Below are positions 19,874 through 43,623 of a stretch of DNA of 45,373 nt, in pieces (positions within the stretch are counted from its first letter, which is position 1; each line of letters starts with the position of its first letter). Location of the stretch: NCBI GenBank assembly GCA_027366525.1, contig DAHXKG010000013.1:294-45666 (forward strand), read 5' to 3'. The notes under the pieces are model-generated. The model was not told where the DNA came from. It made no database searches and saw nothing but the letters and a program-made list of their open reading frames with translations. A program made the position numbers and the translations under genes. The stretch is from a candidate division FCPU426 bacterium (GTDB taxonomy: Bacteria > Oederibacteriota > Muellerivitia > Muellerivitales > DAHXKG01).

Positions 19874-19936
19874 ATTTCATAATCCCTGCTTAATAAATTA
19901 GAAAATACACTATTTAAGCTTATTGAAATTTAGCAC

Positions 19937-22268: not shown

Positions 22269-22297
22269 GCCATCCTGCATTATATGATTAAATCTTA

Positions 22298-23950: not shown

Positions 23951-23977
23951 TTCTTAAAAATAAAGAGGTTCGAATCC

Positions 23978-25612
23978 ATGCACCATTTATATCTACTTTC
24001 TCTTGTAGCTTCCTGCGTAATCAGCCTTGGTGTTACCCCTCTCTTTATTTACTGGGCAAAACGTCGAAATTATTTAGATCATCCTACTCATCGAAAAAAT
24101 CACGAAAAACCCGTTGCCTATCTTGGCGGATTAGCTATTTTTATTACCGTACTTGTGACTTTAGGAATTAATGCTTGGCTAAACCCCAACCCACTTTTAA
24201 AACAGTTAACTTCTCCTAGTATTCGAAAACTCGAATATATTCTCATTTGTACTTTGGGTATGCTTTTTATTGGATTATGGGATGACTTAGGAAAACCACC
24301 TATTCGATATAAGTTTTTAGGACAACTTTTTTTTACATCTTTATTTGTTTTCGGAGGTTATCGTTTTGATTTTTTTTATATTTCAAAATTAATAGCATTC
24401 CATTTAGGAATTTTTGCAATTCCCTTCACCATTTTTTGGATGCTTTCAATTATAAACGCAATCAATATGATTGATGGACTCGATGGCCTTGCTGCATCGG
24501 TAACCATTGGGAGTCTATTTTTTATTAGTATGGCTGCCGGTGTATTGGGTAATTCTCATGAGTGCATCTTAAGTTTAGCCACTTTGGGTGCTCTGTTAGG
24601 CTGGATTGGCTATAATTGGTCCCCAGCAAAAATGTACCTGGGAGACTCCGGATCAAATGCCTTAGGCATGTTGATCGCTGGACTCTTAGCATCTTTGGGA
24701 TGTACTCAACCCGTCTTCCCCCTGCATCCGCTTTCACACCCCAAAGTTTTTCAAGCTTTTCCATATCAAATTATTGTTGTCACCTTAATGGTTGCTTATC
24801 CGGTTATTGAAATCATACTTTCCGTCTTTCGTCGATTATTGCGTGGAAGTCCCATTAGTCGAGCCGATAAAGGTCATATTCATCACCGGTTTCTCAAGCT
24901 GGGTTGGTCTCCTGCAGCTATTTGCGGAATTTTGCTTTTAAGTTCGCTTTTCCCCGGAACCGCCGCCCTAGCTATTTTAACCCATGAATATGAATTGGCC
25001 ATTGGACTGTTGCTTATTTTTGGCTTGTTATTTGGAATTTCACTTCCCTTGCTCGGATTTTTAAATTTCCTGGAACCAAAAAGTTTGATCCTACGTCGCC
25101 CTCATTTTTTGATTGCCAATCACTTTATCCAAATGCAGGAATTAAAGCTTCCACTTATTCATGATCCAGAAGAAATTTTTACATTACTCACCCAAACTTG
25201 CATTGAATTCGGAGTTCAAGGATACAAAATATCAGTCCCTTCTAAAAAAATAGAACATTCTTGGGAACGACCCTTGGATGAACATCGAGCTTACTTAACT
25301 TACCTCAAAACAGATCTCACACATCCAGATCTAAAACAGTTTCACGATAAAATCTTTCTTGAAAACAATGATGGAAAAGCCTATTGGATTTTTGACCCTT
25401 ATACGGAAGAAGTTGACCTTGATATTGAATATCGAGTTCTCATCAGTGACCTTATGAAAAAAGTACTCTTACATCTCGCTCATTTATCTCTTACTACCGC
25501 AACTCATTCAGAAACGCAAGTTCATCCCCAAGTACGAATAAGTTCCAAATTATTAAACCGTCAGGATCCCTTGACACATCCTCGAAGTTCATCTGCCAAA
25601 CATAAAACCTAA
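23978..25612 (+). CDS. Polyprenyl-phosphate sugar-1-phosphate transferase (WecA/MraY/WbpL family, PNPT) with ~200-aa C-terminal cytoplasmic extension
   Basis: Multi-TM protein with the PNPT signature NAINMIDGLDGLA and Mg-binding DD (WDDLG). Family members are ~330-370 aa. Here residues ~340-544 form an extra soluble domain of unrecognised family. Confidence 0.75.
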   Translation: MHHLYLLSLVASCVISLGVTPLFIYWAKRRNYLDHPTHRKNHEKPVAYLGGLAIFITVLVTLGINAWLNPNPLLKQLTSPSIRKLEYILICTLGMLFIGLWDDLGKPPIRYKFLGQLFFTSLFVFGGYRFDFFYISKLIAFHLGIFAIPFTIFWMLSIINAINMIDGLDGLAASVTIGSLFFISMAAGVLGNSHECILSLATLGALLGWIGYNWSPAKMYLGDSGSNALGMLIAGLLASLGCTQPVFPLHPLSHPKVFQAFPYQIIVVTLMVAYPVIEIILSVFRRLLRGSPISRADKGHIHHRFLKLGWSPAAICGILLLSSLFPGTAALAILTHEYELAIGLLLIFGLLFGISLPLLGFLNFLEPKSLILRRPHFLIANHFIQMQELKLPLIHDPEEIFTLLTQTCIEFGVQGYKISVPSKKIEHSWERPLDEHRAYLTYLKTDLTHPDLKQFHDKIFLENNDGKAYWIFDPYTEEVDLDIEYRVLISDLMKKVLLHLAHLSLTTATHSETQVHPQVRISSKLLNRQDPLTHPRSSSAKHKT

Positions 25613-25637: not shown

Positions 25638-26744
25638 TCATGATTTTGAAATCGATGATGTGATGTTTAAATTGTTGAGAATTTTTTCACACCCACTTAA
25701 TACTTCAGCAACTGAAATAGAAAGAATACATTGTTTTTGTTTTAAAATGCAATCATCTAGCTCACAACCTTCACATTCTATCGGTGTTCGATAAATGTGA
25801 TGCCCTTGTCCATAGGGATACCATAGCCCTGGATACTGTGCTGATGAAAAAATGGCAATGCAGGAAATGCCGACAGAAGCAGCCAAATGCATTGTACCTG
25901 TATCATTACCACAATAAAGCCAACAACGCTGAAGTGCAATGGCAGATAACCGAACTGATACTTTTCCTGCAAAATTATAGCCACAATTTAACCTTTTAAT
26001 CAAATCCTGACCTAAATCAAAATCATCCACCCCTCCTAGAATTACAGGCCAAATTGAATATTTTTCAATTAATACAGTCAGCACCTTTTGATATCGCTCC
26101 AAAGGCCAAATGGAAATTGATCGATTGGATGCAATTCCACAAGCTATCCATGGTCTTGAAAAATCATTTGGCAATTTGCTAATAATTGTTTGAAATGACT
26201 TTTCTTCTTCAGAAGTCAAATTAATACTGGGATTACCACAATTAATATCGGGCACCTTTAGTCCTGAAGCTTTTAGCCGCAATAAAAATCGATCGGCCTC
26301 CCGCTCTACCAATGGCAAAAACGAGTTGGGCTGACGTGGAGGCAATGGAAAATCTTCTTTAATTCCAATTGTTTTTTTGATACCAACCAGTTTAAAAAAA
26401 ATGGAATCTCTCTTTTTTTGCCATCCTGTTCTTCCCGATGGGGCAAAATATACCAGAAGATCAAATTTAGTTTTTCGGATCATGAACACAATTTTTAAAA
26501 AATTAAAAAAACTTTTAAAGCCTTGAATTCGTGATGAGTAATGAAAATATCCAGAAAAAAAATCCGAATGATCAAAAATCTGTTCCGCCGTTACTTTTTT
26601 ACTTTGATTCTCTGAATTTGAAAGAAGAAAAAGTGTTGCATACGGGAAATTTTCTTTCAGAACCCATATCGAAGGTACCATAATAAGCATGTCACCTAAT
26701 GAACCTATTCTAAAAATCAAAATTTTTTTGACTTTTTCACTCAT
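25638..26744 (-). CDS. Glycosyltransferase family 9 (ADP-heptose:LPS heptosyltransferase-like)
   Basis: N-terminal KILIFRIGSLGDMLIMVPSIWVLKENFP matches the GT9 signature (ILIIRxSxLGDxI). GT-B length (368 aa). Convergent with the WecA-like gene. Confidence 0.7.
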   Translation of the reverse strand: MSEKVKKILIFRIGSLGDMLIMVPSIWVLKENFPYATLFLLSNSENQSKKVTAEQIFDHSDFFSGYFHYSSRIQGFKSFFNFLKIVFMIRKTKFDLLVYFAPSGRTGWQKKRDSIFFKLVGIKKTIGIKEDFPLPPRQPNSFLPLVEREADRFLLRLKASGLKVPDINCGNPSINLTSEEEKSFQTIISKLPNDFSRPWIACGIASNRSISIWPLERYQKVLTVLIEKYSIWPVILGGVDDFDLGQDLIKRLNCGYNFAGKVSVRLSAIALQRCWLYCGNDTGTMHLAASVGISCIAIFSSAQYPGLWYPYGQGHHIYRTPIECEGCELDDCILKQKQCILSISVAEVLSGCEKILNNLNITSSISKS

Positions 26745-27063: not shown

Positions 27064-28452
27064 TTATTTATTCCTTGATTTCACTTGTTTTTTTATCCAC
27101 TCAAAAACTTTAAAGAGAATAAATAAAATCAATACATTTCTCAAAATAATCCAATCTGCTATTAAATTGGTTTGAAAAAAGAAAGCGATTGTGAGTGCAG
27201 CAGAAAAAACACATAATGAAAAAAAAACATTTCCCATTTTAAATAAAAGGCCTGAAACTTTTTCAAGAAAAACCAATAGGCCACCTAGTAATAGCCCCAT
27301 AAAGAAAGCTCCTGGAATACCCCAATCTGCGCATCCAAAAAATGGCCAATCCACCCCACGATCTCGCGAAGCCATTCCATAAAAATGTTCAATATATTGA
27401 AGGGGCTGACGATGTAAATATTTTTGATCTAAAAACACCTTGGGGACAACCCAATATAATGTTCGAACTATCGCTCTCCCCATCATCAGCGGTTGCGTGT
27501 TTTGTTTTTTTAAAATTCGAGCTATCGGGCGAATAATTAATGCCCGATGAGACATATTTCGGGCATATCTTTTCCCCCACGTGTGGAGTACTGGATGCGT
27601 TATTAAATACGATGCAATGGCAGAAACTTTAGTCAAAGGCGATAAATAATGAAAGCGATAGGAAGCAATCCGAATATCCAAGTACAATGGAAAAATGAAA
27701 CTATTTGCAAAAACAATTAGAGCAAGAGCACCTATCACAAATTTAAATTTTACTTTTTTTTCATTAATCAGATAAATGATGAAAATCAAGACCAAAAAAA
27801 AAGCCATTTCTCTTCGAGCGTAAATGAGTGCAAAAACAAATTCACTCAATAAAATGACCATAGAAATTAATTTATTTTTTCCTTTTAAAAAAGAAGTCAC
27901 ACTCCAAACCACACAAATATATTTAAATAATCCAATCATCATATTGATCGAGGTTAACCAATATGGCAATTTCACCCATGTTGATTTATTTATTCCTGAC
28001 AAAAATCCAGCTTTTAAATCAAAAAGTATTTGAAAAAAAAACGTACCAATAAAAAACAAGATCATAGATGTTGGGTCCACGAATAAAATAAAAGATGTAA
28101 TTACTTTTAAAAAACCACCCAAGTACTCTTGTGTACCATTTTTAATTTTGAATTTTGGGGTCCATGCACGCATTAAAAATAAGCCATAGATGAAAAAAAG
28201 AACAGCTCCGTAAGTCTCCAAGAGTATATACAAACTGACATCACTCAATTTGTGATTTCCATAATAAAATGAAATCCAAGGTGCAAATCCAAAAATCGCC
28301 GCATTGCTCCAAATTGCCAAATCAATTGTTGAAAAAATTTCAAAATTATTTCTAATTTTCAAAAATGTGAAAATACCAGTCAGACCGATTAAAAGGCCTA
28401 AAATTAATTCTATCGCCACGTTATTCATTTTAAACAAATTCCATATAAACAC
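27064..28452 (-). CDS. Polytopic membrane protein, putative Wzy-like oligosaccharide repeat-unit polymerase / O-antigen ligase-like
   Basis: 462 aa with ~10-12 hydrophobic helices and a large loop rich in R/H/W near the C-terminal third. Sits between GT genes and the flippase in the glycan operon. Sequence-level family assignment is weak, as usual for Wzy. Confidence 0.4.
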   Translation of the reverse strand: MFIWNLFKMNNVAIELILGLLIGLTGIFTFLKIRNNFEIFSTIDLAIWSNAAIFGFAPWISFYYGNHKLSDVSLYILLETYGAVLFFIYGLFLMRAWTPKFKIKNGTQEYLGGFLKVITSFILFVDPTSMILFFIGTFFFQILFDLKAGFLSGINKSTWVKLPYWLTSINMMIGLFKYICVVWSVTSFLKGKNKLISMVILLSEFVFALIYARREMAFFLVLIFIIYLINEKKVKFKFVIGALALIVFANSFIFPLYLDIRIASYRFHYLSPLTKVSAIASYLITHPVLHTWGKRYARNMSHRALIIRPIARILKKQNTQPLMMGRAIVRTLYWVVPKVFLDQKYLHRQPLQYIEHFYGMASRDRGVDWPFFGCADWGIPGAFFMGLLLGGLLVFLEKVSGLLFKMGNVFFSLCVFSAALTIAFFFQTNLIADWIILRNVLILFILFKVFEWIKKQVKSRNK

Positions 28453-28494
28453 ATTTTTTTCATACTGAATATTCTAAAAAGTGAATTTTAAAAT

Positions 28495-29535
28495 TCATTG
28501 TAGCCCTATCATTAATATTTCCTGCATCCGTTCTGGATAACTATACTTGGATTTGATACATCGCATTCGTCCAGCTTGGGCAATTTTTTTTCTTAGTGAT
28601 TCATGCTTTAAATAAAATTTACATTTATCCACCAATTCTTCTTTTGTTTCAAAAAACTCGGCTTCTTTACCCTCTTGAAATAAAGATAAATGTTCTTGAG
28701 TTCGCTCCCCCAGCATAAACGCTCCACAAGCAGGAATTTCAATCGATCGCTGTGTTTGCAAATCAAAATTCATTTTTCTTAAAAAACACAAATTAATATC
28801 AAAACTACAAATCGTTTTCCCATAGTTTTTTCCTTCTATTGCTCTTCGCATGATTAATACATTACTATTCGTTTTTTGAATTCGTTCCCAGTCTGATCCA
28901 TAAATCACAACTTGAAGTCCCTGATTTCCTAGATATTGTAAATAAGAGAATCGATCATTCTCATATGTTCCAATAAATCCAATTGCGCCTCCAAATTTAT
29001 TTTTGAATTTTGATGAAATGCGATGCTGACGATGCGTACATGGATCATATCCATTTCCTTGAAACAAAACACGTTTAACTCCTATTTTTTGATGCCATTG
29101 AACAGCATACGATTTCGTTGTAACAAAGAGATCATAATATTTGGAGTGTTCAATAAATAATAGACTATTATTATGACGCATCTCCATATAATCGGGAGAA
29201 TACCCGATGACTTTAATAGCAGGAAATTGTTGTTTAATTCGCTTAATGGTCTGCGAAGAAACATAATTACCCTTGTCAATCCAAAGAACATCCCATGTTT
29301 TTTTAAAAGCCGTTTGCAAAATGGTTTGATTGATAACCTTTATCTGAAATTTTAAAGAAGGAAGAGTATGTTGATAACACCATTCATTAAGCCTTAAAAA
29401 AAAATTTATTTTTTCAGGTTGATGTTGAACGAGTGTTACTGAATGTCCATTTTTTTTTAAGGCTTGGTAACGTTGAAGACTGGTTCCGGAAGGAACACCT
29501 AAATATAAAATTTGAAGATGTTGTTTGTTCATCAT
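28495..29535 (-). CDS. Putative glycosyltransferase (CgeB-like / GT1-like C-terminal domain)
   Basis: C-terminal …FETKEELVDKCKFYLKHESLRKKIAQAGRMRCIKSKYSYPERMQEIL resembles the tail of GT-B (Glyco_trans_1_2/CgeB) enzymes. Overlaps the upstream GT4 stop by 4 nt (ATGA). Confidence 0.45.
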   Translation of the reverse strand: MMNKQHLQILYLGVPSGTSLQRYQALKKNGHSVTLVQHQPEKINFFLRLNEWCYQHTLPSLKFQIKVINQTILQTAFKKTWDVLWIDKGNYVSSQTIKRIKQQFPAIKVIGYSPDYMEMRHNNSLLFIEHSKYYDLFVTTKSYAVQWHQKIGVKRVLFQGNGYDPCTHRQHRISSKFKNKFGGAIGFIGTYENDRFSYLQYLGNQGLQVVIYGSDWERIQKTNSNVLIMRRAIEGKNYGKTICSFDINLCFLRKMNFDLQTQRSIEIPACGAFMLGERTQEHLSLFQEGKEAEFFETKEELVDKCKFYLKHESLRKKIAQAGRMRCIKSKYSYPERMQEILMIGLQ

Positions 29536-30668
29536 GTTGTTAAAGTTTCTAAAAATTGATTATATCGATTTCCATACGCTCGCCAAGACATTTTTTCAAG
29601 ACTATTATTTGAAATTTGTCGTAAGCCCTTTTGTTGTCGAGCTATTTCCACAACTTTTTCAATTCCTCTTTTAAGACTTTCAACATCATTGGATGGAACA
29701 ACAGTTATTAGTTTTTTTTCAGTAGGTGTTAAAATTTCCATCAAATCTTCTCCACCAGTTTTATCCGAACAAACAATCGGAAGACCACAGGCAAGCGCTT
29801 GGCCAAGAACTAGTGCCATTCCTTCTTCCCGAGACGGCAAAACAAAGAGATGGGCTTGGGCATAAATCAATGCCAACTGGGTTTGATCAACCTTTCCTAT
29901 ATGTTTAAAATTTTCTAATCTCGGAAACGGACAATCACCAAGTATTCCCACATGTACAAGCTGATAAGTACTTTTGTATAATGCTTGGCTCAATAAATCA
30001 CATCCTTTCCGATAACTCCAAGTTCCTGCCATGCAAATCACTAAGGGGGCTAGTGGTGGAGCTATTGTCGGTTTAAAATGAATTAAAGAAGTTCCGTAAG
30101 GATTACGAAAAATTTTTTTAGCAGAAACACCTTCTTCAATCATGCTTTTAAAAACATGGTGGGATGGAACCACAATGATGTCGGCAACTGCATAGTCCCG
30201 CAATTCTCGAAAAATTGCTGAGTTTGAAACAGTTACTGCTTTTTTATTAAGATTAGCACAAACCTGATCCATGATTTTTTTTTGAGATTGAATATGTCTG
30301 GATCCTCTCTCAATTAAAATTTTTGCATTCCACTTTTTTTTAGCGAGAACGACACTCCGGTAAAAACATCCAGACATGGCAATCACAATATCACAGGGTT
30401 CCATAGTTTCGGATACGATTAGATCCATTAACCAAATTGAAAAATTATTTGCTTTGTCTCCTAAGAAACTCCCACCGGTTAAACGTGCTATTAAGTAATG
30501 TAACCCCAACGTCCAAACAGGCCGTGCACATTGGGGGGGTAATCCAAATTGAGAAGTTCGAAATTTTGGAACATATGAATAAAATCGAACCTCATGTCCT
30601 AGCATTGATAATTCACGAGCCAAATCACAAACGTGAAATCGTCCTGGCGTAAGAATATTAATTCTCAT
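29532..30668 (-). CDS. Glycosyltransferase family 4
   Basis: EX7E region LPSREEGMALVLGQALACGLPIVCSDKTGGEDLM. GT-B length (378 aa). Confidence 0.8.
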   Translation of the reverse strand: MRINILTPGRFHVCDLARELSMLGHEVRFYSYVPKFRTSQFGLPPQCARPVWTLGLHYLIARLTGGSFLGDKANNFSIWLMDLIVSETMEPCDIVIAMSGCFYRSVVLAKKKWNAKILIERGSRHIQSQKKIMDQVCANLNKKAVTVSNSAIFRELRDYAVADIIVVPSHHVFKSMIEEGVSAKKIFRNPYGTSLIHFKPTIAPPLAPLVICMAGTWSYRKGCDLLSQALYKSTYQLVHVGILGDCPFPRLENFKHIGKVDQTQLALIYAQAHLFVLPSREEGMALVLGQALACGLPIVCSDKTGGEDLMEILTPTEKKLITVVPSNDVESLKRGIEKVVEIARQQKGLRQISNNSLEKMSWRAYGNRYNQFLETLTT

Positions 30669-30685
30669 TCCTAAGTTACTCCTTA

Positions 30686-32122
30686 CTAAATTTTATTGTT
30701 CATCCATCGCTTCATTAAAGTACTCATTAACAATCTACCTCCTCCTAAATCGCTTTTCCACCATAGTAAGGCACTCAAAATAACAAATCCAAACATTAGA
30801 CCCAGTTGTATTGTCAACACTGTTGTTATTGACAATCTCCAGCATAAAATCCAAGCACCTGCATTTAAAACTATAGGAACTATAAATTTTTTTAAGTGGC
30901 CTTTGAATATAGAACTATATACCCACGCCATGTAAGTGAAACTTCCTATTAAAGTTCCTAAAGCAAATCCAATACTTGCACCGATAACTTGATCCATCAG
31001 AGCCCCCTGCCAAGTCAAGATTCCATTTAAAACCACTTGTATTGTGGATGCGATGACTAATTTTTGATATTTTCCATTCGCGGTTAACCAAGCAGATCCC
31101 ACTACCCAAAATCCACGAAATATAAGCCCGCTACTTAATATGATTGCTAATGGAATTGCGGGAAACCATTGAGACGGTAAAACCAATTGCATTAAATCCT
31201 GAAACAATAACGCTTGTGTTCCACATACAATAAACACAATTGCGGTGAGTATATGTGCAGATTTTAGTGCCACTTGATTCAATAAAACTGGTTTATGGTT
31301 AATATACGTAAAACTGGGAAATAATATTTCTTTTAAATTAATTGCCAAAAGAAAAATCAGTTGATTGGCAATCATCCACCCCCAAGAAAAAAAACCCGTA
31401 TTTTGATTTCCAAGATAAATTCCGCAAATAAAAATAGGAAGTTGAGTTTGTAATCCGAATAAAAGTCCTGTAATGGCAATGGTTAGTGAAGGATATATAA
31501 GTAATCGAATTGTATTCCAGTTTGGATGTTCAAAACGGAACGAAGCCCCTTGCCGATACATGATAATCATGTTAATAATTTGCTTCGGAATCAATGGAAC
31601 AATTAACGCATATGGACCCCATCCTAACCAAGCTAAAAAAATAACTAATGGCGTGAAAACCATCCCTCCTATAAATTGCGAAAATGCAATGCTTTTATAG
31701 TTCAATTTACTCTTGAGATCCGCAGCCAAAATCGTAGCGGGAGCTCCTATTAAATTTGCCACTGCAAGAATTAGAAGAAGATTTCCATCAATATTTTTTT
31801 TGTAAAAAAAATTTATCAGCGCAATCAAAGCGATTATCAACGAAGTGAGTAATGAAAATGTTCCTGAGAGCCAAAAAGCTTGACCAGATTCTTGATTAAC
31901 CTTTTTCCGTTGCAAAAGAACATCACCAATACCTCCCACTGATAGTATGGCGGTAAACGCAATTACTGATTGGACCCAATTAGCTATTCCAACATCCTTC
32001 GGCAATAAAAGCCATGTAAGAGCCAGTTGACCTAAAACGGTCACAACTTTGTTTAGACTAGAAAAAAAAACACTCCAAAATGCGTTCTTGATCGTTTGAT
32101 ATCTAATGTCCATAGAATACAC
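30686..32122 (-). CDS. wzx: Wzx-type oligosaccharide flippase (MOP/polysaccharide biosynthesis protein family)
   Basis: 478 aa with ~12-14 TM helices. The N-terminal TIKNAFWSVFFSSLNKVVTVLGQLALTWLLLPKDVGI is the typical Wzx/PST-family start. Confidence 0.75.
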   Translation of the reverse strand: MYSMDIRYQTIKNAFWSVFFSSLNKVVTVLGQLALTWLLLPKDVGIANWVQSVIAFTAILSVGGIGDVLLQRKKVNQESGQAFWLSGTFSLLTSLIIALIALINFFYKKNIDGNLLLILAVANLIGAPATILAADLKSKLNYKSIAFSQFIGGMVFTPLVIFLAWLGWGPYALIVPLIPKQIINMIIMYRQGASFRFEHPNWNTIRLLIYPSLTIAITGLLFGLQTQLPIFICGIYLGNQNTGFFSWGWMIANQLIFLLAINLKEILFPSFTYINHKPVLLNQVALKSAHILTAIVFIVCGTQALLFQDLMQLVLPSQWFPAIPLAIILSSGLIFRGFWVVGSAWLTANGKYQKLVIASTIQVVLNGILTWQGALMDQVIGASIGFALGTLIGSFTYMAWVYSSIFKGHLKKFIVPIVLNAGAWILCWRLSITTVLTIQLGLMFGFVILSALLWWKSDLGGGRLLMSTLMKRWMNNKI

Positions 32123-32170
32123 TGATTACCTTAAGTTGGATCCGCAGATGCACGGTCTATATTTCAAAGT

Positions 32171-33364
32171 TCAGATAAAATGATTCATTGTACTTTGAAC
32201 CGCTTGATAAATACCTTCAACTGTGAATTGATTGTTGTAGAATAGACTAATAAGATTTCTTGCATGAATTCCCATTTGTTTGACTTGCATAGGTTGATTA
32301 ACTAATTTTTCAATATACAAAGCCAACGCATTAACATCTCCTTCAGGAAATACATAACCTGTAACTCCTGGTTTAACTAGATCAAATCGAGAACCCACGC
32401 CATCAGAAACAATCACTGGAAGCCCAAATTGCATGGCCTCATTCACCGCCAATCCCCAAGTTTCAAATTTTGAAGGTAATACCGCTAGATCCGCTGCCTG
32501 ATAAAACTTCCCCAGTTGAGATTGGTTAACAAATCCTTGAAAAATCAATTGATGAGGAAGATAACGGTGAGCAAAAGATTGAATCTCTTGGTTCATGGGG
32601 CCTTCGCCCATTAAAATGCACTTAATGTCATCTCTTTTAAGTTTTGCAATTGCTTGTAGAAGCAATAGTGGATTTTTACGTGGAATGAATTTTCCTGAAA
32701 AAATAATTACAAAATCAGTTGGCGCAAGGTTCAAGTCTCGACGGCTCTTTTCACGGCTAAACTGAGTGCGTTGTTTTTCAAACAAATCTGTGTCAACTGA
32801 ATATGGACAAAATGTCATTTGGGATTCAGAAATTCCATGCTGGATTAAATGACGCCTTGCATTTTCACCAATAACTCCAAAATGATGAATCTCTTTATAA
32901 AACCAAGACAAGTATGTTCTATGAATAATCTCTAAAGCAAAGGGGCGTCTTCTGTCAGTAAGTTCACCTTGAAAAATCAATCGATTTTTCAAGCGAGAGC
33001 GTAGTTGTCGTATCTGAACAGCAAATCCATAGGTGTACCCTTGAATAAGAATGCAGTCAAATGAATTCGATTTTAAAAAATCATATGCATGAGGAATTTT
33101 AATGGACCACGGATTATTCAAATTAGCATCATGTGAAATAAAAACACTTTTATACCCGCTCAATAAATCAATATCCCAAGTAATAGCTTTATTAAATCCA
33201 GGATCAAATCCATTCCTTAAACTATTATCACTGAAGAAGTATACCGTCATGTCTAATTGTGGTTTTAAAGCCAACTTTTTCCAAATAGGACAAAAATATT
33301 GTATCGGATGGGTTGTAAAAATACCAAGTTTGATCATCTTAATTTTTTCAAATAATTTTATCAC
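32171..33364 (-). CDS. Glycosyltransferase family 4
   Basis: LAVLPSKFETWGLAVNEAMQFGLPVIVSDGVG (EX7E motif). GT-B length (397 aa). Confidence 0.8.
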   Translation of the reverse strand: MIKLFEKIKMIKLGIFTTHPIQYFCPIWKKLALKPQLDMTVYFFSDNSLRNGFDPGFNKAITWDIDLLSGYKSVFISHDANLNNPWSIKIPHAYDFLKSNSFDCILIQGYTYGFAVQIRQLRSRLKNRLIFQGELTDRRRPFALEIIHRTYLSWFYKEIHHFGVIGENARRHLIQHGISESQMTFCPYSVDTDLFEKQRTQFSREKSRRDLNLAPTDFVIIFSGKFIPRKNPLLLLQAIAKLKRDDIKCILMGEGPMNQEIQSFAHRYLPHQLIFQGFVNQSQLGKFYQAADLAVLPSKFETWGLAVNEAMQFGLPVIVSDGVGSRFDLVKPGVTGYVFPEGDVNALALYIEKLVNQPMQVKQMGIHARNLISLFYNNQFTVEGIYQAVQSTMNHFI

Positions 33365-33505
33365 ATCACAAAAACAACTTATGAATAGCTTATCTTATTT
33401 CTTTTGATTTTGATATCAATTCAAAAATTGATTATTAATACTTTCCCATTGAATTCACGTTATTTTGTTCGTGTTTCTTTTACCATGATTATTTTTCAAC
33501 CGCGA

Positions 33506-36500
33506 TTAATGAAGAACCACGAACTTAACAATTTGATGACCAAGTTGATGACCCGAAGCACCTTGTAGTGTCGCCACGGCCAAATAAAGCCCACTCGCCA
33601 AATTAGAAACTGAATATGTTGCTGAATTGGCTCCAAGGTTGCCTGCAAATTCATCTACCAATTCACCAGCCGTATCATAAACCCGAACACGACTGATTGT
33701 CCAATTCGCCGATCCCACCGGAGGAATTACGCGTAACGTCAATATATCCTGACCATAATTTAAAATATTGGGAGCAGCATAAACCGTTCCTGTTTCCGTT
33801 GCGCCACTTAATACACTGACTTCCTGAGTTACAACTACTTGTGATCCGCTACCGGAATTTGAAATAATTTCAATAAAATAATCGCCATTGGACACAATCG
33901 TACCGTTATCATTTCGTCCATTCCAAGTAGTGGTTCCAATAGTGCCACCCGAATTATTCAGCCATGTAATTTTCATCTGTGGAGCATTCACTGTGTTATT
34001 AGGCGCTAAAACATTTGTAGATATTTGGGCATTAGTTGCTTCTGTTTGAGTGCTATAATCTGTTGTCTGTGTATAAAGATGTCGTACCACCTCACCTGAT
34101 TCGTTATAAATTTCAACAGAAATAGTTTGTATATCTCGATTCACGGTCACAGTTTTGGTTTCGGTGGTCACATTCCCAAAGGGATCCGCATTATCAATGG
34201 TAATATAATATTGCCCATTTGCAACAGGTTGATTGGCATTATTGGTTCCATTCCAAGTTCCGATCAAAGTACCTTGATAGTAGATGCCAATGGTCGTTTC
34301 CAAATTTTGAATTTCATCAGTAGACAAAAGTTGGACATTGTTGATCGGCTCAGAATATTTGGCAACTAGAATCTGTTTAACAATTTCACCGGATCCATTA
34401 TAAACATTGATCGTTACTGTATAAATACCTGTCGTGGTTACTGGCGCATTGGCCACTACTGGAGGATGCTCTAAATCACCCCATACAGCTTGGTTATTAA
34501 TTACATCCCCTCCAACAATGACCTGATTCACTGTTGCGGTATAGCTGAATGTGTAAATCCCTGGAACAACTGTTCCTAAATTCCAAATCAGAAGTGTCGA
34601 TGGCGCACTTCCACCTAAACTGGTAGTCACCGTTGCTTGAGGAGTTACATTTCCAGTATAAGTTAATCCGGCAGGAACGGTATCCCAAAGCATGGCATCT
34701 TGAGCCATGTTATTGGAAACATATGCCCGAATGGTATATGTTTCTGGAGCCCCCGCAGCAGGAGACAAATTGGACGCAATTTTAGTTAATTGAACCGTAA
34801 CCACGGGCGTTGGCGTGTTTGTTGGTGTTGGAGTAACCGTTGGCGTAAAAGTCAACGTGGGTGTAGGAGTACTGGTAGACGTATCCGTAACTGTCGGTGT
34901 ATTGGTTGACGTAAAAGTGGGTGTGGCCGTCAACGTATTCGTAGGTGTGGCCGTAGGCGTAGCCGTTAAGGTATTAGTTGGAGTTGAAGTAACTGTCAAA
35001 GTAGGTGTGGCCGTAGGTGTATTGGTTGGAGTAAAGGTATTCGTGGGAGTAAAGGTGTTCGTTGGTGTTGCTGTATTGGTTGGTGTCTCAGTCGGTGTAA
35101 AAGTGGGTGTCGGCGTTGCCGATGGAACCGGTGTGTTCGTAGGTGTATAAGTTGGTGTGTTAGTGGGCGTAGCTGTGGGTGTCACTGTAAAAGTATTGGT
35201 CGGTGTATTCGTAAATGTGGGTGTAGACGTCATTGTAAATGTATTGGTCGGTGTAAACGTGGGTGTTTGGGTTGGAGTATTGGTTGCAGTAAATGTAGCA
35301 GTTGCCGTCGGCGTTGGCGTAGGAGTATTTGTTGCAGTTGGAGTTGGCGTATTCGTGGGCGTATTCGTAGGTGTAAACGTGGGTGTTTGAGTTGGAGTAT
35401 TGGTTGGAGTAAATGTAGGAGTTGCAGTCGGTGTTTGTGTAGGAGTATTCGTCGCAGTTGAAGTTGGCGTATTCGTGGGTGTAGGCGTTTGAGTCGGGGT
35501 ATTCGTCGGCGTACTTGTATTCGTTGCCGTAGGTGTTGGCGTATTTGTTGTACAAGAATTAACTGTTACAGTCACTGAATTTGAAGTTAATGTTTGAGGC
35601 GAACCTGAAACCGTTCCACTGATATTCGCCACATTAACTTGCTGGGTTGGATTACACGTCACTGCAGCAGACCATGTCACTGATCCGTCTAAATCATAAA
35701 CTGTAACCGGGTTAGCTCCACCTACATCCCACACTAGACTTGGTGAAGTTTGAGATGGTGTTAGACTCGAACTGCCTGCAACATAGGTTTCTCCGGCTGG
35801 AATAGGGTCTGTCAACACCGGACTAATAACAGGATCAGCTGAAATCATGCTAAGGTTTGCATATAATTGTCGTCCGGCTGTATAGTTTCCAGAAACAGAG
35901 GTTGGATCGGCTACCCATCCATAATAATACGTTCCACCAGCCGCTTCTGTATTACATGGCATCGTGGTGGTGGTGTAAGTAATGTCCCATCCGGCAGGTT
36001 CAGCCGTCCCAACGGGCCAAACTTTTATATTGATCGTATACGTACCCGTCGCTGAATTGTAATTAATCTGCGATAAAACCGTATACCATGTATTGAACCC
36101 AATATAATTGCTTCCAAATTGATTCATGGCAGAGGATTGAAAATGAGGAGAATTGACAGAAGCCACTGTCGCATAATTATGAGAACCATCGTTTTGCTGG
36201 AGTGCTAAGTTTCCTGGAACATCATCGATTGAAAGAATCACATCAAACCCATAGTTATTGGAGGGATTACTCATAATCGCCATGGTCGCATCTTCACCTG
36301 CACCATTTGCGCTCCCATTTTGAAGGAGTGAAGGAATATAAATATTCCCTTCAATAATCCAAGTTCCACCCGTACATGCGCCAACATTCGTTGGACTTTG
36401 TCTTAAAAGAGCTTCATACCCATTGGTATTATTGATATTATTGGGGTTAGCTTCTACATCAATATAATTTCCATTTCCAGGAGATCCCACCGGTGCTGTT

Positions 36501-37681
36501 GCATTATTCTGAACTTCCCAATTATCTTCTTGAGATGTGCCTGAAAGTGCATACGTTGTTCCATCAAAACCAGTAATGTTACTCCCGGTGGTTGTCGTTG
36601 ATGGAGCGGAGTCATTATTATACGTATCATACGTTTGCAAACTAGTTTGTCCAATCGAATACTGTAATGCATATGTAACCGGACTCCCTGCAGTCAAACC
36701 CATGGATGGACCTATAATACTTTTAATTAATTGAAAATCTCCACCCACCGTTACTTGTGCTGGATTCGAAATCACCGTTCCTGTTGCGGCGGATCCTGCA
36801 CTTGCAGTATTGGTAATTGTCCCTGAGGAAAACCCACTACTCACACGAGTCAAAAACCAAACGTATCCTTGAGGTGTTGTACTGGTATTATTAATAACCC
36901 ATTGGATGACTGAACCTGCGCCACCAGTCCCGCTTACTAAAGTTCCTCCTGGACTAATCACCGCACTCATGGTTCCGCTGGCTAAACTAGTATTAGCAGG
37001 AATCGTATCAGTAATCGTTATGGGACTCGTATTAATCGCAGTATAGTCAATTCGAAATAAAACTAAATCTCCAGCCAAAGCGCTGTTTCCTATTGCTTCT
37101 TTAGAAATAGTTAAGCTTGGAGTTACTGATGTATAATTCACATTAATCGGGGTGTATCCTTGTTCGCTTGACGGAATACTACCTGCATTACTACATTGAA
37201 TATCATCGGTTTGCGCTCCAACCACAATATTGTAGGATCCCACGGTCATCGTCGTTGGAATTTGTACATCAAACACTTGAGTTGCAGGACAAGGCCCCAC
37301 GGCCGCTGCGTTTCCAGAATCCCAACCATTATTATCGGTATAATCATTTTGAGTAGAAGTCAAAGGATTGGCTGGACCAGCTGGATTATTGCCGTCCACT
37401 AAAAAATGTTGATCGGGTTGAGGACAATCTTGGATCGTCGTTGAACTTGAGGGTTCTAACGCAACATCAAAATAGGTATTGTTATACGATGCATTTTCAC
37501 AGTAGACAACTGTAACTCCTATATCTGAACCTGGAGCTGGATTGGTATTAGAGACAGTTACTGAGGTTACCGAAGCTGTAGCATGTGCCAAGATAGGCAG
37601 TAGCATCCCAAAAAGAAAAACGAATCCAAAATAAAATCGTTTTTTAATTTTATCACCACGCGTCGCCATATCACTCACCAT
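33506..37681 (-). CDS. Giant secreted cell-surface protein: signal peptide + DUF11-like repeats + FlgD-Ig-like repeats + ~260-aa Thr/Pro/Asn linker + T9SS (Por) C-terminal sorting-domain-like tail
   Basis: Signal peptide [24 protein letters not shown]11/conserved-repeat-like segments ([40 protein letters not shown]; [27 protein letters not shown]…[11 protein letters not shown]). Three …YN(G/E)SGE(I/V)V… Ig-like repeats. Residues ~705-965 are almost pure (T/N/S/A/F)-P-T repeats. The last ~85 aa ([18 protein letters not shown]…[11 protein letters not shown]…[10 protein letters not shown]…KFVVLH) resemble the TIGR04183 Por secretion C-terminal domain. It is the first gene of a minus-strand operon continuing into GT4/wzx/GT4 genes. 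Confidence 0.75.
34790..35570 (-). repeat. Low-complexity coding repeat encoding the TPT/NTPT mucin-like linker (contains a ~120-bp internal near-duplication)
   Basis: The plus strand is a degenerate ggtgt/ggcgt-rich periodic sequence. The segments ~35225-35345 and ~35365-35485 are near-identical (tattcgtaggtgtaaacgtgggtgttt(g/a)gttggagtattggtt…). This produces spurious ORFs on the antisense strand and in alternative frames (poly-VGV, CRS/RRW-rich). Confidence 0.8.
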
Positions 37682-38149
37682 TATAATCGTTTACCTTGCC
37701 AAATTAATCGTTTTATCTTCTCTAAATTATACTCTGAATTTTAAAGTTCGTCTAATTAAGTTTTTATCCTAATTTGAAAATAGTGTCTATCCTTGATAGT
37801 AATTAAAATTCACTCCAAATTCTAAAAAAACCTTATAACATCGATCTTTTTAAAAAACAAAGCCATATTATTAAAATATTCAAAAAATAAGCTATTAACT
37901 TTAGAAATAAGTCTATTGTGAATTTTATCTATAATTCTTAGTTCTCGCTCCAATTAGGGTTGCATTGAATTAATAAAGCTTTCATTCAACTCTCTCTTCA
38001 ATAAAATTCTTTAGCTTCAATTGCCTTGATGGGTTCAAAATCAATTCAAATGCTTGGCATGGCTTCAATTTTGCATAATCATCTTTTTAAAATTGAATTC
38101 ACTTTGAAAAATTTTAAAATTTAAGTATGATTCGAACAAGTGAATTCAA

Positions 38150-39700
38150 ATGTCCGATCCTAAAAATATATCCTTAGCTCAACTCACAAACAAAAAATTA
38201 TTAATTAAAAATTCGCTTTGGAATTTTATTGGTCAGCTAATTCCACTAACAATGGCGGCTATCAGCATGCCTATTTTGATTCATCGATTAGGCTCCGTTC
38301 GTTTCGGCATTCTTATCCTAGCTTGGACTTTAATTGGATATTTAGGATTATTAGATTTTGGAATTGGAAGCGCTATGGCTCAATCCATTTCAAAAAAATT
38401 AGGTCAAAACCAAATTGACGAAATTCCTCCCACCATTGGAACAGCTTTATTGGCAGTTGGCTTTTCAGGATTTACAGGAGGTCTTTTAGCTTTTTTACTT
38501 GCTCCAATGTTGGTACACCATTTTTACCATGCCTCACCTGCCATTCAAAAAGAACTGCTTCTTTGCCTTAGAATTATGGCCCTGTCGCTTCCCTTAGTCA
38601 TTGTATCTCATGTTTTAAGTGGTGCTTTAGCTGCTAAACAAAAATTTAAATTATTAAATCAAATACGCATTCCATTGGGAACCATGAACTTTTTAATTCC
38701 TTTGATCATTTTAAATTTCACCACTCACGTCTACTGGATTGTTGGATTTTTAGCCTGCTCCCGTCTCATCGGATTTTTTCTATATATTTATTCATGTTTC
38801 AAGGAATATCAAGTGCAATTCAAGCATTTAAAAATTCAATGGGATTATCTAAAATCGTTGATTGTTTTTGGAGGGTGGGTAACCATTACCAGCCTTGTCA
38901 GTCCGATTCTAGTTACTTTCGATCGGTTTATCATTGGATCCTTTATTTCCATCGCTGCCATTGCCTACTACTCTACTCCTTATGAATTAGCCAATAAAAT
39001 TCAAATTTTTTCATCTCCTCTGATTCAAGTTTTATTTCCGGCATTGGCTTCAAGCTATCAAACGACATCCGACAAAACTACTCTTTTACTCAAAGAAAAT
39101 ACCAAAATAGTGTTTTTTTTACTCTTCCCGATTACGTTAACTGTCGTTTGCTTTGCTCGATTATTTCTATCATTATGGCTAGGTAACACTTTTGCCGCAC
39201 ATAGTGAGAAAGTTTTACAATTAATCGTCATTGGCGTTACCTTCAATATTCTTGCGCAGTTTTTTTACATTCTGATTCAAGGGGCAGGACGTCCAGATTT
39301 GACAGCGAAAAATCATCTTGCTGAAATTCCTTTTTATTTAATTGTTCTATTTTTATTTATACACTGGTTTGGAATTACAGGCGTTGCTTGGGCTTGGATC
39401 ATACGAGTGATACTGGACCTTGGACTTCTCGCTTGGCAGTCCTATCATATTATTTTAAAAAGAATGATTTTTTCAGTACCTGTATTCTCTTGGATGACCG
39501 GATCATTAATTTTTCTATTGGGAACAACATTTCTTCATCTTTCGTTAATTACACACCTCATTCTCTACATGATCCTCTTGATTGTTTTCCTTAATATCAG
39601 TTGGTTAAAATTTTTAGACAGTTCAGAAAAAACACTTCTCAAAAAATTTTTTATTCAATTTATTCTCAGAAAAAATTTCTCAACCTCACATCATTTGTAA
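38150..39700 (+). CDS. Polysaccharide biosynthesis protein / Wzx-like flippase (MOP superfamily), second copy
   Basis: 516 aa polytopic. The N-terminal LLIKNSLWNFIGQLIPLTMAAISMPILIHRLGSVRFGILILAWTLIGYLGLLDFGIG is the typical PST-family N-terminus. Divergent from the giant surface-protein gene. Confidence 0.7.
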   Translation: MSDPKNISLAQLTNKKLLIKNSLWNFIGQLIPLTMAAISMPILIHRLGSVRFGILILAWTLIGYLGLLDFGIGSAMAQSISKKLGQNQIDEIPPTIGTALLAVGFSGFTGGLLAFLLAPMLVHHFYHASPAIQKELLLCLRIMALSLPLVIVSHVLSGALAAKQKFKLLNQIRIPLGTMNFLIPLIILNFTTHVYWIVGFLACSRLIGFFLYIYSCFKEYQVQFKHLKIQWDYLKSLIVFGGWVTITSLVSPILVTFDRFIIGSFISIAAIAYYSTPYELANKIQIFSSPLIQVLFPALASSYQTTSDKTTLLLKENTKIVFFLLFPITLTVVCFARLFLSLWLGNTFAAHSEKVLQLIVIGVTFNILAQFFYILIQGAGRPDLTAKNHLAEIPFYLIVLFLFIHWFGITGVAWAWIIRVILDLGLLAWQSYHIILKRMIFSVPVFSWMTGSLIFLLGTTFLHLSLITHLILYMILLIVFLNISWLKFLDSSEKTLLKKFFIQFILRKNFSTSHHL

Positions 39701-39777
39701 TCAATTATTTCTGTCGAGACTCTCATTTGACATTCGCGTCATACTGAATTACAATAATCTTAAAAACTTAATTCGAT

Positions 39778-40791
39778 ATGGACAATCCATCCAGTTTTCA
39801 TTCTATTACTGCAGTCATCGTAACTTATGGTAATCGTAAGTGCTTTTTAGAACCTGTATTGAAATCTGTTCTTACTCAACAGGTTCATTCAATTCTCATT
39901 ATCAATAATGGCGGCCGTTGGGATATTGAAGCTTTGGCTGCCTCGCTTAGCCCTATCATTCAAGTCATTCATCTTCCAACAAATACAGGGTCTGCGGGAG
40001 GATTTTCCGCTGGAATCCAAAAAGCACTCGAACTTCAATCTCAATTGATTTGGTTACTCGATGATGATACTTGTCCTTCCACCCAAACGCTCGATCAACT
40101 GTTTAAGGCTTATCTTGATCTTAGCTCAAAACACCAACCAGAAAATCTGGCTGTCGTATGCTTTCGGCCTACACGTTTCTCCCCTTGGGTTTATTCACAC
40201 CCAAATCGGCTTTTTAGAAATCCATTCAGTTTCATGGGATTTGATATAACTCAAATTCCATCAAGATTATGGACTCGAATAACACGAATTTTTTCACACG
40301 ACCCATTAATTCTACCGGATAAAATTCCTTTGGAAACTGCACCCTATAGTGGGCTTTTGTTTCATTCAACTTTGATTAAGCATATTGGACTGCCGTGTCA
40401 AGATTTTGTTGTCTATGTAGATGATAGCGAATTTACATATAGAATAACGCAAACTGGTGGTGTTCTTTATCTAATCACCCATTCCGTTCTAAAAGATATT
40501 GGACCTATTTGGCATCACGGAATTTCAACCCATCAATTTTTTGTGGCCCTGCAAGGGCAAGATGATTTTCGAGCTTATTATAATATGCGCAATGAAGTTT
40601 ATTTCGACCTTCATATCCGAAAACACGCCCCTCAATGGCTATACCACATAAATCAAATTTTGTTTTTTGGGATTCTTTTTATGTTTTCAATTCTTTATGG
40701 AAAACAAAAACGATATCGTATTCTCGTCCGTGCTATACAAGATGGACAAACCCAACGTCTTGGAATTCACCCCAATTATCCGTTATCTTAA
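39778..40791 (+). CDS. Glycosyltransferase family 2 (rhamnosyl/galactofuranosyl-transferase-like GT-A)
   Basis: ITAVIVTYGNRKCFLEPVLKSVLTQ (GT2 N-terminal beta-strand plus N), DXD-type LLDDDTCP, second acidic motif VYVDDSEF. Confidence 0.75.
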   Translation: MDNPSSFHSITAVIVTYGNRKCFLEPVLKSVLTQQVHSILIINNGGRWDIEALAASLSPIIQVIHLPTNTGSAGGFSAGIQKALELQSQLIWLLDDDTCPSTQTLDQLFKAYLDLSSKHQPENLAVVCFRPTRFSPWVYSHPNRLFRNPFSFMGFDITQIPSRLWTRITRIFSHDPLILPDKIPLETAPYSGLLFHSTLIKHIGLPCQDFVVYVDDSEFTYRITQTGGVLYLITHSVLKDIGPIWHHGISTHQFFVALQGQDDFRAYYNMRNEVYFDLHIRKHAPQWLYHINQILFFGILFMFSILYGKQKRYRILVRAIQDGQTQRLGIHPNYPLS

Positions 40792-41104
40792 TTTGATTTA
40801 ATTTGGATTTAAATGCTTAGAACAGGTTTGCTTTATCAAATAAAAATCCAAAGCATTTGTTCCATTTTCAAAATATTTTATGATTTTTATTAAATCAAAA
40901 TTAATCATGCCTCACAAATAAAAAATACCATTTTTTATTTTACCATAGCTACTCAGCAAAATCTTAAATTGTCCAAAAAACATTTTAACTCCACGCCAAA
41001 ATTATTCATGAATTGACAAATTTTATTCCTTAATATTATTTGAAATATCACAATTTATACATATAATGCATCTGTTTTGGATCCCGAGGGAAAGGAATAC
41101 CTTC

Positions 41105-43296: not shown

Positions 43297-43623
43297 AGCT
43301 ATGTTATTCTATATTTTTAAATAAAAATCATCCAAGCATATTTTTTATATTTTTACTCCAAACTCACCTCAGATATTTTTGATGAATTTTTGAAACTTAT
43401 AGGTATTTTTGAATAGAAATAGTGGACGAGCGTCTAAGTAATTGATCCACCTTCAGCCCAACTATAAGCAGAATAAATTTGAACCACCAAAACCAGCAAA
43501 TCACTCTTGGTCATTATGAAATTCAAACTCGAATGATCTTTTAAATTACCCACTTAACTAATTCAGAAATGCAGGCAGGTATCCTCCAAAATATTTACAC
43601 AGCCGGAGATACAATTGATATGG

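Follow-up and report, generated by a model that had tools for sequence, protein, structure and literature searches.

In Porphyromonas gingivalis, type-A cargo of the T9SS (type IX secretion system) is tethered through a linking sugar to anionic lipopolysaccharide (A-LPS) (PMC7468200, PMC13086638), and the T9SS is described as confined to Bacteroidota in two reviews (PMC11611037, PMC12365241). Fibrillar adhesins carry a stalk domain, termed CLIPPER, between their adhesive and sorting domains (PMC12617251). The slg systems of Geobacillus contain an ABC transporter and a recognisable O-oligosaccharyltransferase (O-OTase) of the Wzy_C type, and the S-layer gene is transcribed independently of them (PMC2943079). 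In streptococci, YfhO-type enzymes O-glycosylate Ser/Thr-rich regions of surface proteins, using undecaprenyl-phosphate-linked sugars as donors (PMC12041528). RbmA of Vibrio cholerae binds Vibrio polysaccharide (VPS) directly (PMC5605196). The subject of this report is a 45,373-nt stretch of bacterial DNA (the window) and, within it, a gene for a 1391-aa surface protein that is followed on the same strand by genes for glycosyltransferases (GTs), a flippase and a Wzy-like membrane protein. A first-pass annotation had proposed that these genes form a dedicated surface-glycoprotein system of a kind it did not recognise as described, with a giant T9SS cargo protein and a complete set of enzymes for its glycan. 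Comparison with related loci leads us to a different reading, which we regard as probable: the protein is a stalked adhesin with a C-terminal sorting domain (CTD), it belongs to a lineage-specific family, and its gene stands inside an ordinary Wzx/Wzy surface-polysaccharide locus and not in a dedicated cargo-plus-glycan system.

The open reading frame (ORF) for the surface protein spans 33506-37681 on the minus strand, and all of its segments are given here by their minus-strand positions. Met5 at 37669 is likely to be the true start, given the GGTGA motif immediately 5′ of it and the length of the ENA call, 1387 aa. The exact 1391-aa protein was found on metagenome contigs only. Residues 1-34 (37580..37681) read in translation as a signal peptide, with a K/R-rich n-region, a hydrophobic core and a cleavage site between AHA and T. 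A variable 'head' follows (residues ~35-712; 35546..37579) that is all-beta and contains several Ig-like or beta-sandwich domains. This region of ~680 aa has zero Pfam matches even at E<=1; its AlphaFold2 (AF2) model has strands throughout at a pLDDT of 62.9, and Foldseek returned generic multi-Ig adhesin, S-layer and integrin matches only, with TM<=0.25. An attempt to assign a function to the head by these routes gave nothing beyond the generic multi-Ig matches. Between the head and the C-terminal domains lies a Thr/Pro-rich (PT) linker (residues ~713-958, 246 aa; 34808..35545), recognised by its composition and repeats; the stretch 713-975 is 47% Thr, 20% Pro and 9% Asn, and the linker is encoded by degenerate tandem repeats of 18, 24, 48 and 120 nt. 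The GC content at codon position 2 reaches 0.77 in the linker, and GC at position 3 across the gene is 0.30-0.36, compared with 0.23-0.30 in the neighbouring genes. The rise in GC across the gene is thus due to amino-acid composition, acting through codon position 2. A foreign origin of the gene was considered and ruled out, since GC3 is near that of its neighbours; GC by codon position gave no compositional evidence for it.

The C-terminal block of ~430 aa was modelled by AF2 (19 homologues) at a pLDDT of 85.5 as four beta-sandwiches: a CLIPPER domain, two FlgD_ig-type domains and a terminal domain. The DUF11/CLIPPER stalk domain (residues ~958-1082; 34436..34810) is matched by PF01345 at 27.3 bits against a gathering score (GA) of 24.6, solely on this domain after the linker; its alignment profile, A1, matches structure 9ifr at E 1.2e-6, and Foldseek gives a TMt of 0.72 to the same structure. 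In alignment A1 (window 34436-34810, minus strand), D43 and N106 are invariant in the family and most members have a Lys near the first strand, a pattern that would allow the Lys-Asn isopeptide triad known from CLIPPER domains. The two FlgD_ig-type beta-sandwiches (residues ~1084-1292; 33806..34432), recognised by PF13860 and in the AF2 model, score 47.4 bits (GA 27) on residues 1101-1309 in three matched stretches and 32.6 bits when the whole protein is searched, and a profile of this region matches FlgD structures. DUF11 and FlgD_ig domains, which the first-pass annotation had proposed to look for, are thereby recognised. Its third proposal, a T9SS-type tail, corresponds to the CTD, which occupies the terminal 95 aa (residues ~1297-1391; 33509..33793). 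At the level of the single protein this domain narrowly misses the curated models, with 26.1 bits to PF18962 (GA 27) and 21.3 bits to TIGR04183 (cut-off 23), and it is family-level matches, described below, that bear the proposal out. In the window protein, as in the complete ORFs of its family, the CTD extends as far as the stop codon, and the window protein has an N-terminal Sec signal.

The C-terminal domains are shared by a large set of proteins. We use the term C-module for CLIPPER and the two FlgD_ig sandwiches, with the CTD at the C-terminus, L-numbers (L007, L013, L088 and the like) for loci fetched for comparison, and L095 for sequence of the source contig past the right end of the window. 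A scan of the GTDB species representatives with the C-module alignment found 91 relatives in 76 loci. They are mostly labelled 'candidate division FCPU426 bacterium', with some Candidatus Firestonebacteria; weaker matches occur in Goldiibacteriota and in metagenome-assembled genomes (MAGs) labelled Spirochaetia, and a few of the labels are evidently loose. The aroB gene of the window has its best non-self match at 54% identity, and its best named matches are Verrucomicrobiota at ~49%, which shows no more than that the lineage is a deep one. We infer that the host is a member or neighbour of FCPU426 and lies outside Bacteroidota, which takes away the Bacteroidetes frame in which the locus was first interpreted. 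In the fetched loci, 106 ORFs end in the C-module. All of them have a head that varies, then a PT linker and the C-module; complete ORFs measure 830-2493 aa, their PT stretches cover 60-1592 aa, and in many cases the genes are arranged in tandem. The 1391-aa protein falls in the middle of this range, so that 'giant' holds only in relative terms: for a modular family that is large and lineage-specific, its size is ordinary. The same type of PT linker and CTD is also found on GH9, pectate lyase and GH5-like proteins in related loci.

Two other accounts of the architecture were tried and rejected. When the C-terminal 433 aa were used as a query, 29 apparently 'stand-alone' proteins of ~420 aa were found, as if such a protein had been captured; these are gene-caller truncations of ORFs of 1030-1282 aa, in each of which a signal peptide and a head of another kind precede a 250-530-aa PT linker and the shared C-module. 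Three of these relatives share a metagenome sample with the window protein, and their C-modules are 55-60% identical to its own. A one-off fusion of head and C-module was rejected because the same long-form order of head, linker and C-module recurs in at least 10 proteins of 1205-1544 aa from FCPU426-type MAGs. Nine further head homologues in the databases, of ~800 aa and 58-61% identity, carry the head, a short PT linker and a single CTD. Public gene calls break at the PT linker in many of L011-L086 and at L007:4919-8032, L007:8213-11305 and L008:7529-11377. Two JGI calls, for example, of 434 and 458 aa, correspond to the C-terminal parts of ORFs that measure 1030 and 1282 aa, and short antisense ORFs, which are spurious, are called over the linker. 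As a result too few members of the family are reported, and they pass for 'stand-alone FlgD/TIGR01451 repeat proteins'. The family is large and apparently undescribed.

The proximity of the adhesin gene to glycan genes does not extend to these relatives. The proteins GT4a, GT4b and GT4c, Wzx1 and Wzx2, Glyco_trans_1_2, the Wzy-like protein, the GT2s, WecA and Wza served as blastp and phmmer queries, with every ORF in 82 related loci (1.27 Mb) as target. Homologues of GT4, Wzx, GT2, WecA, Wza, Glyco_trans_1_2 and the Wzy-like protein were found in none of the 82. Other matches in these loci were GT9 in L013, two weak Wzc-like proteins (L085 and L076) and one weak acetyltransferase (L036). An adjacent GT/flippase operon was likewise found in none of the four contexts of the closest head homologues, two of which, the closest, share another conserved neighbourhood that runs from an LMF1 gene through gltX. 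One head homologue (P0008) has, at a distance of 5-8 kb, a YfhO-like gene and a gene for a Wzy_C protein of 1011 aa. Paralogues from the same metagenome sample adjoin genes for GH116, an ABC transporter, TatC and a TonB-dependent receptor. From the opposite side, the closest related glycan cluster in the metagenome collection, L088, carries one-strand homologues of GT4b (47% identity), GT4a (46%), Glyco_trans_1_2 (44%), GT9 (39%) and GT4c (34%), and has no PT or CTD protein. Given the absence of the linkage from the 82 loci, the four head contexts and L088, the adjacency of adhesin and glycan genes is, on this comparison, specific to this genome. The 'dedicated' character that the first-pass annotation had suggested does not survive this comparison, a check that the annotation itself had named.

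The genes 3′ of the surface-protein gene are those first proposed, in the order first proposed, as ORF and Pfam analyses agree. They follow on the same strand at spacings of 141, 48, 17, -4 and 42 nt; the short same-strand spacing noted earlier therefore stands, and its values of 142, 49, 18, -4 and 43 bp are corrected. The glycosyltransferase GT4a (32171..33364, minus) matches PF00534 (Glycos_transf_1) at 136 bits, and is followed by the Wzx/MOP-family flippase Wzx1 (30686..32122, minus; PF13440, Polysacc_synt_3, 105 bits; NF007773), by a second glycosyltransferase, GT4b (29532..30668, minus; PF00534 and PF13692, ~66 bits), and by a CgeB-type glycosyltransferase (28495..29535, minus) of the family Glyco_trans_1_2 (PF13524, 98 bits), which is the Pfam family containing CgeB. 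The last of the five genes (27064..28452, minus) encodes a polytopic membrane protein of 462 aa, in which ~10 hydrophobic segments and a loop of 120 aa can be made out. It has no direct match in Pfam, NCBIfam or the PDB by sequence or profile. A full HMMER scan gave 119 homologue clusters; of 60 aligned homologues, four match Wzy_C and four match O-ag_pol_Wzy, and residues R213, R261, R303, R438 and D364 are invariant. Because of these matches among its homologues, the protein is placed in the Wzy/WaaL superfamily. Its topology and invariant Arg residues would suit a Wzy polymerase, and a polymerase, a ligase or an O-OTase would be alike compatible with the placement. After a gap of 319 nt comes a GT9 (heptosyltransferase-family) glycosyltransferase (25638..26744, minus; PF01075, 50 bits; TIGR02195).

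The gap between the surface-protein gene and GT4a (33365..33505, minus) measures 141 nt. With a start of GT4a at the ATG at 33337, which would give it the typical N-terminus MIKLGIFT, the gap would be ~168 nt. An intrinsic terminator or structured RNA was sought in the gap, and an Rfam element in the leader and the gap, and none was found: the fold of the gap RNA (z = -1.1) is no better than that of shuffled sequence, and no strong terminator of the kind that would have told against the first-pass proposal is seen before the GT4 gene. A promoter-like match of 9/12 at 33419-33392 is near the background rate (55 found, 42 expected). The lack of a terminator-like site makes co-transcription with the glycan genes possible, and read-through into GT4a could bring about their co-expression.

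These genes are part of a longer locus, the extent of which is seen directly in the ORFs on both sides. To the left, on the plus strand (21531..25612), lie genes for the outer-membrane export protein Wza (OPX; PF02563 and SLBB), a Wzc-like PCP/tyrosine kinase (PF02706, GNVR and AAA_31) and an initiating transferase of the WecA/MraY family (PF00953), and further GTs occur at 15-19 kb of the window. On the 5′ side of the surface-protein gene, an AT-rich divergent intergenic region of 468 nt (37682..38149), with a best minus-strand promoter-like match of 10/12 at 37754-37726, separates it from Wzx2, a Wzx/MATE flippase that matches PF01943 and PF13440. Wzx2 opens the right part of the locus (38150..45360), which continues with a GT2, a methyltransferase, a second GT2, a hexapeptide acetyltransferase and an epimerase, and runs past the window. 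The sequence beyond was taken from ENA contig k141_1102221 (73,163 nt), of whose last 45,373 nt the window is the reverse complement, and adds a dehydrogenase of the UGDH family, a GT2, a 638-aa protein, a WcaI-like GT4 and an FkbM methyltransferase. The 638-aa protein (L095:4554-6470, minus) has ~8 transmembrane segments, a large C-terminal soluble part and no Pfam or NCBIfam match, and could be an unrecognised GT-C or polymerase-like enzyme. In all, the locus covers at least 40 kb and encodes Wza, Wzc, a WecA-type transferase, two Wzx flippases, a Wzy-like protein, many GTs, methyltransferases and UGDH. The five genes once regarded as a complete lipid-linked glycan set are a slice of this Wzx/Wzy and Wza/Wzc locus, the product of which would in the simplest case be a surface polysaccharide exported by these two pairs. 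No DegT aminotransferase and no WbpB-type (GFO_IDH_MocA) oxidoreductase of the Wbp pathway was found in ~55 kb, where the only Wbp-like enzymes are the UGDH-family dehydrogenase and the hexapeptide acetyltransferase.

Evidence on the sorting of the adhesin comes mostly from its family. PF18962 matches 72 of 90 family CTDs at E<=0.01 (best E 1.8e-10), and 23 of the 90 also match FlgD_ig. The CTD profile, A4, aligns end to end with the PorU CTD (6za2, E 1.9e-4) and also matches PorZ (5m11, E 1.5e-3); its matches to RemA and to the CTD chain of 8glj (E 0.015) are weaker. Across the 106 ORFs, whose heads are diverse and include enzymes, the CTD is invariably terminal. On these matches, the CTD is T9SS type-A-like at family level. 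A candidate partner is an outer-membrane barrel of the PorV/PorQ family with a tetratricopeptide-repeat (TPR) tail (NF033709, 118.7 bits against a cut-off of 90), which also weakly matches UPF0164. Its genes lie 0.1-4 kb from family members in six loci of five MAGs (L063:4053-5393, L060:3173-4513, L037:852-2120, L026:13066-14466, L034:3702-5162 and L068:2430-4109). Such clusters recur in FCPU426-type MAGs, outside Bacteroidota; in them the barrel gene often stands among cargo genes and is preceded by genes for an extracytoplasmic function (ECF) sigma factor and for an anti-sigma-like protein with FlgD_ig at its C-terminus. When all ORFs neighbouring C-module genes were clustered, no partner family was found in more than eight of ~80 loci. 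T9SS machinery (SprA/Sov, PorK/L/M/N, PorU, PorV) was not found in the 73 kb of the source contig, nor was an ORF of SprA size found in the 1.27 Mb of fetched loci, and a search of the literature returned nothing on a T9SS in FCPU426, Goldbacteria or Firestonebacteria. The PorV/PorQ-family genes that stand beside family members appear to be better candidates for the handling of the CTD than the glycan genes of the window.

Candidates for glycosylation of the linker are also found beside the relatives. Genes for a YfhO-type GT-C membrane protein (PF09586, 36.9 bits against a GA of 28.5, with weak PgfM1 and PgfM2 matches) occur as nine copies in five loci, several of them between genes for PT-linker proteins; they include L026:2742-4847, L055:8277-10490, L018:3333-5453, L045:2972-5056 and 17375-19900, and L042:17104-19551. 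The window contains no YfhO-like or PorV/PorQ-family gene, and no recognisable O-OTase (Wzy_C) or GT-C transferase. The general O-glycosylation sequon of Bacteroidota is D(S/T)(A/I/L/V/M/T). It occurs four times in the whole surface protein (residues 225, 357, 1000 and 1336) and not once in the linker. If the linker is glycosylated, the YfhO-type GT-C enzymes encoded beside paralogues would, on the model of the Pgf and PgtC2 enzymes of streptococci, be better candidates for the task than the pathway of the Wzx/Wzy block.

A path to the surface can be proposed from these parts. The protein would be exported by the Sec pathway via its N-terminal signal peptide, and would then cross the outer membrane and be retained at the surface by means of its T9SS type-A-like CTD, with the help of a PorV-like partner. 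CLIPPER and the two FlgD_ig domains of the C-module would form the base of a stalk, from which the Thr/Pro linker of ~250 aa, possibly O-glycosylated, would act as an extended spacer that displays the all-beta head at the tip. The downstream genes would serve a separate function, the synthesis of a cell-surface polysaccharide such as an extracellular polysaccharide (EPS), a capsule or an O-antigen-like polymer. As the adhesin gene stands at one of the divergent promoter regions of the locus, shared regulation is plausible.

Several observations weigh against this account. The CTD of the window protein lies slightly below both curated cut-offs, PF18962 and TIGR04183, and the T9SS core genes (SprA/Sov, PorK/L/M/N and PorU) were not found in the lineage sequence at hand, the 73-kb contig and, for an ORF of SprA size, the 1.27 Mb of relatives. 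The placement of the window in FCPU426 rests on homologues at 33-42% identity and on the labels of relatives. The 141-168-nt gap before GT4a, with no terminator-like site, leaves co-transcription with the glycan genes possible. A second head-family paralogue lies ~16 kb from the surface-protein gene, on the far side of the same polysaccharide locus, at L095:1-344 (minus), which is below 19335 of contig k141_1102221 and ~8.5 kb past the right end of the window; it is called as 759 aa and has a signal peptide, and its N-terminal 89 aa are 44% identical (the first 114 aa were read). Finally, a head-type long-form member in L013 (7223-11314) is directly 3′ of four GT9-like genes. These four genes and one for a 452-aa polytopic membrane protein occupy L013:1-6758, the sole other locus of the 82 with envelope-glycan GTs beside a family member. 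Together with the second head paralogue, L013 hints at a loose, recurrent tie to envelope-glycan genes. With the Wzy_C and YfhO-like genes near the P0008 homologue added, the cases are few and heterogeneous, and give a low probability to a loose functional link between this head subfamily and such loci.

Most of these points feed explanations in which the glycan acts on the protein. It is very improbable that GT4a, Wzx1, GT4b, the CgeB-type GT and the Wzy-like protein build a lipid-linked glycan for the PT linker or the anchoring of this one protein. The genes do share a strand, with short gaps and no terminator-like site; the superfamily of the Wzy-like protein includes O-OTases, of which WsaB and WsfB carry Wzy_C (PMC2943079); and target genes beside glycosylation clusters have precedents in sgsE and sgtA near slg (PMC2943079) and in Cnm, CnaB and CbpA beside pgf of Streptococcus mutans (PMC12041528), so that an arrangement at first thought to be new has described parallels. 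The linkage, however, was found in none of the 82 loci or four head contexts, and L088 has the glycan genes without the protein; paralogues in the same sample carry the same linker and CTD in unrelated contexts, so that glycosylation or anchoring would need to act in trans on many substrates; and the five genes form part of a larger locus for Wza/Wzc export, whose 462-aa protein has no direct Wzy_C match. A general role, in which the locus makes an anchor glycolipid analogous to A-LPS for all CTD cargo and adhesin genes have accumulated nearby, is quite unlikely. The tethering of type-A cargo in P. gingivalis offers a model for it, and the locus contains a GT9 of the LPS-core family, the Wzy/WaaL protein, the UGDH-family dehydrogenase, the hexapeptide acetyltransferase and two head-family paralogues in it or at its edge, with the four GT9-like genes of L013 as a possible parallel. 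Wza and Wzc point to an exported polymer and not to LPS, however, the DegT-type aminotransferase and WbpB-type oxidoreductase are missing from ~55 kb, such genes are not found near the family's more than 100 other members, and nothing ties the glycan to the CTD. We consider equally doubtful the more specific idea that stalked adhesins are exported by a T9SS-like route and then tethered or decorated by the glycan of this locus, with cargo and glycan coupled in cis, as is not known for the A-LPS system of P. gingivalis. Under that idea, the possibly co-transcribed adhesin gene, the second head paralogue and the GT9 cluster of L013 would be traces of the coupling, and cis-encoded cargo and anchor glycan would have been a first. 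The comparative evidence runs against coupling in cis, and the annotation that fits the locus best is therefore that of an adhesin gene within a surface-polysaccharide cluster of an ordinary kind.

Two further explanations, both unlikely though less so than those above, concern the partners of the adhesin and the nature of its tail. In one, the adhesin is a matrix protein co-regulated with the polysaccharide, which it binds or organises non-covalently. A parallel is V. cholerae, where the rbm matrix-protein genes are located between vps-I and vps-II. The window gene has a comparable setting at a divergent promoter region within its locus, with possible read-through, and its beta-sandwich head and the second head paralogue in the same locus would suit such a partnership; Pfam detects no carbohydrate-binding family in the head, though, and the association is not conserved in relatives. 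In the other, the CTD is simply one more Ig-like domain of the stalk, a T9SS is absent from the lineage, and another route serves to release or anchor the protein. The sub-threshold scores of the window copy, the FlgD_ig matches of 23 of 90 CTDs and the Bacteroidota-only distribution of the T9SS in the reviews cited at the outset would agree with this, as would the FadL-like character of PorV-family barrels and the weak match of the PorV-like protein to UPF0164. Relatives of UPF0164 occur in spirochaetes, which are not known to have a T9SS. A mere stalk domain fits poorly, however, with a position that is always terminal on more than 100 proteins with unrelated heads, enzymes among them, with the PF18962 matches of 72 of 90 copies and the end-to-end alignment to the PorU CTD, and with the presence of PorV/PorQ-family genes among cargo genes.

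A stalked CTD adhesin within an ordinary polysaccharide locus remains the reading that we prefer, and what matters beyond the locus is the family to which the adhesin belongs. PT-linker proteins with a CTD are found in a candidate phylum where a T9SS is not reported, and their PorV/PorQ-family and YfhO-type neighbours are concrete candidates for the sorting and glycosylation of such proteins. Public catalogues under-report the family, since gene callers split its members at the PT linker.

Other features of the window lie to the left of these genes. A tRNA-Glu(CTC) gene (17656-17730, minus) is inside the polysaccharide region, in the stretch of lowest GC (0.29). At the left edge of the glycan genes, a remnant of an IS30-like transposase (13885-14790, plus), made up of an HTH_38 ORF of 177 aa and an rve-fragment ORF of 119 aa, is a sign of local plasticity. 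A secreted protein of 323 aa (19937-20908, minus), ~620 nt from wza and divergent from it, has no Pfam match; its C-terminal segment is LysM-like (NF008399, 37.8 bits, below the cut-off). The gene at 10631-13651 (minus) encodes a 1006-aa protein with a weak GH42-like core and without a signal peptide, which has a full-length homologue of 50% identity in L026 (18059-21082) and is a useful marker for the closest genomes. Members of the C-module family, as well as a PorV-like and a YfhO-like gene, are likewise present in the MAG of L026.

Comparison with known systems can be made for each part of the locus. The type-A cargo proteins of the T9SS, such as the gingipains, PorU, PorZ and RemA, resemble the window protein in having a Sec signal and a C-terminal beta-sandwich of ~90 aa, and in its relatives PorV/PorQ genes stand beside the cargo. 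The window protein differs in that its lineage is outside Bacteroidota, its own copy of the CTD is sub-threshold and no core machinery was found in 73 kb of its contig; in its family, moreover, the CTD is always preceded by the module of CLIPPER and two FlgD_ig domains and by a long PT linker. The link between CTD cargo and a surface glycolipid is a conceptual likeness to the anchoring of cargo on A-LPS in P. gingivalis, the Wbp-pathway hallmarks of which are lacking from the ~55 kb of the window locus. The A-LPS genes of P. gingivalis are dispersed and not known to be operonic with cargo. With the CLIPPER-bearing fibrillar adhesins (PMC12617251) the window protein shares a signal peptide, a distal head, a stalk and a sorting or anchoring domain; its stalk, however, is mostly low-complexity PT linker and not tandem Ig repeats, it has a single CLIPPER domain, and its anchor is a CTD and not an OmpA-like or LPXTG domain.

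Among systems in which a surface protein is encoded near its glycosylation genes, sgsE or sgtA with slg in Geobacillus (PMC2943079) is alike in placing the surface-protein gene near GTs, an initiating transferase and a Wzy_C-type enzyme, whereas the window has a Wzx/Wzy and Wza/Wzc export set, no recognisable O-OTase, no S-layer evidence and a linkage that is not conserved. The Pgf system of S. mutans (PMC12041528, PMC5856776) is alike in that genes for the Thr-rich adhesins Cnm, CnaB and CbpA adjoin those for the enzymes responsible for their O-glycosylation, an arrangement echoed in relatives of the window protein by the YfhO-type GT-C genes between PT-linker genes in five loci. Pgf differs in being composed of a GT2 and GT-C enzymes in a Gram-positive host with sortase-anchored substrates, where the window has GT4, Wzx and Wzy-like proteins and no YfhO-like gene. 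Loci for EPS and capsules that combine Wzx/Wzy with Wza/Wzc, of the group 1 capsule and colanic-acid type, differ from the window locus in that the latter has two flippases, a GT9 and two embedded surface-protein genes, and in that its polymerase is identified by transitive homology only. They have in common with it an initiating transferase, GTs, Wzx, a Wzy-like protein, Wza, Wzc and enzymes for the supply of sugar nucleotides and for modification.

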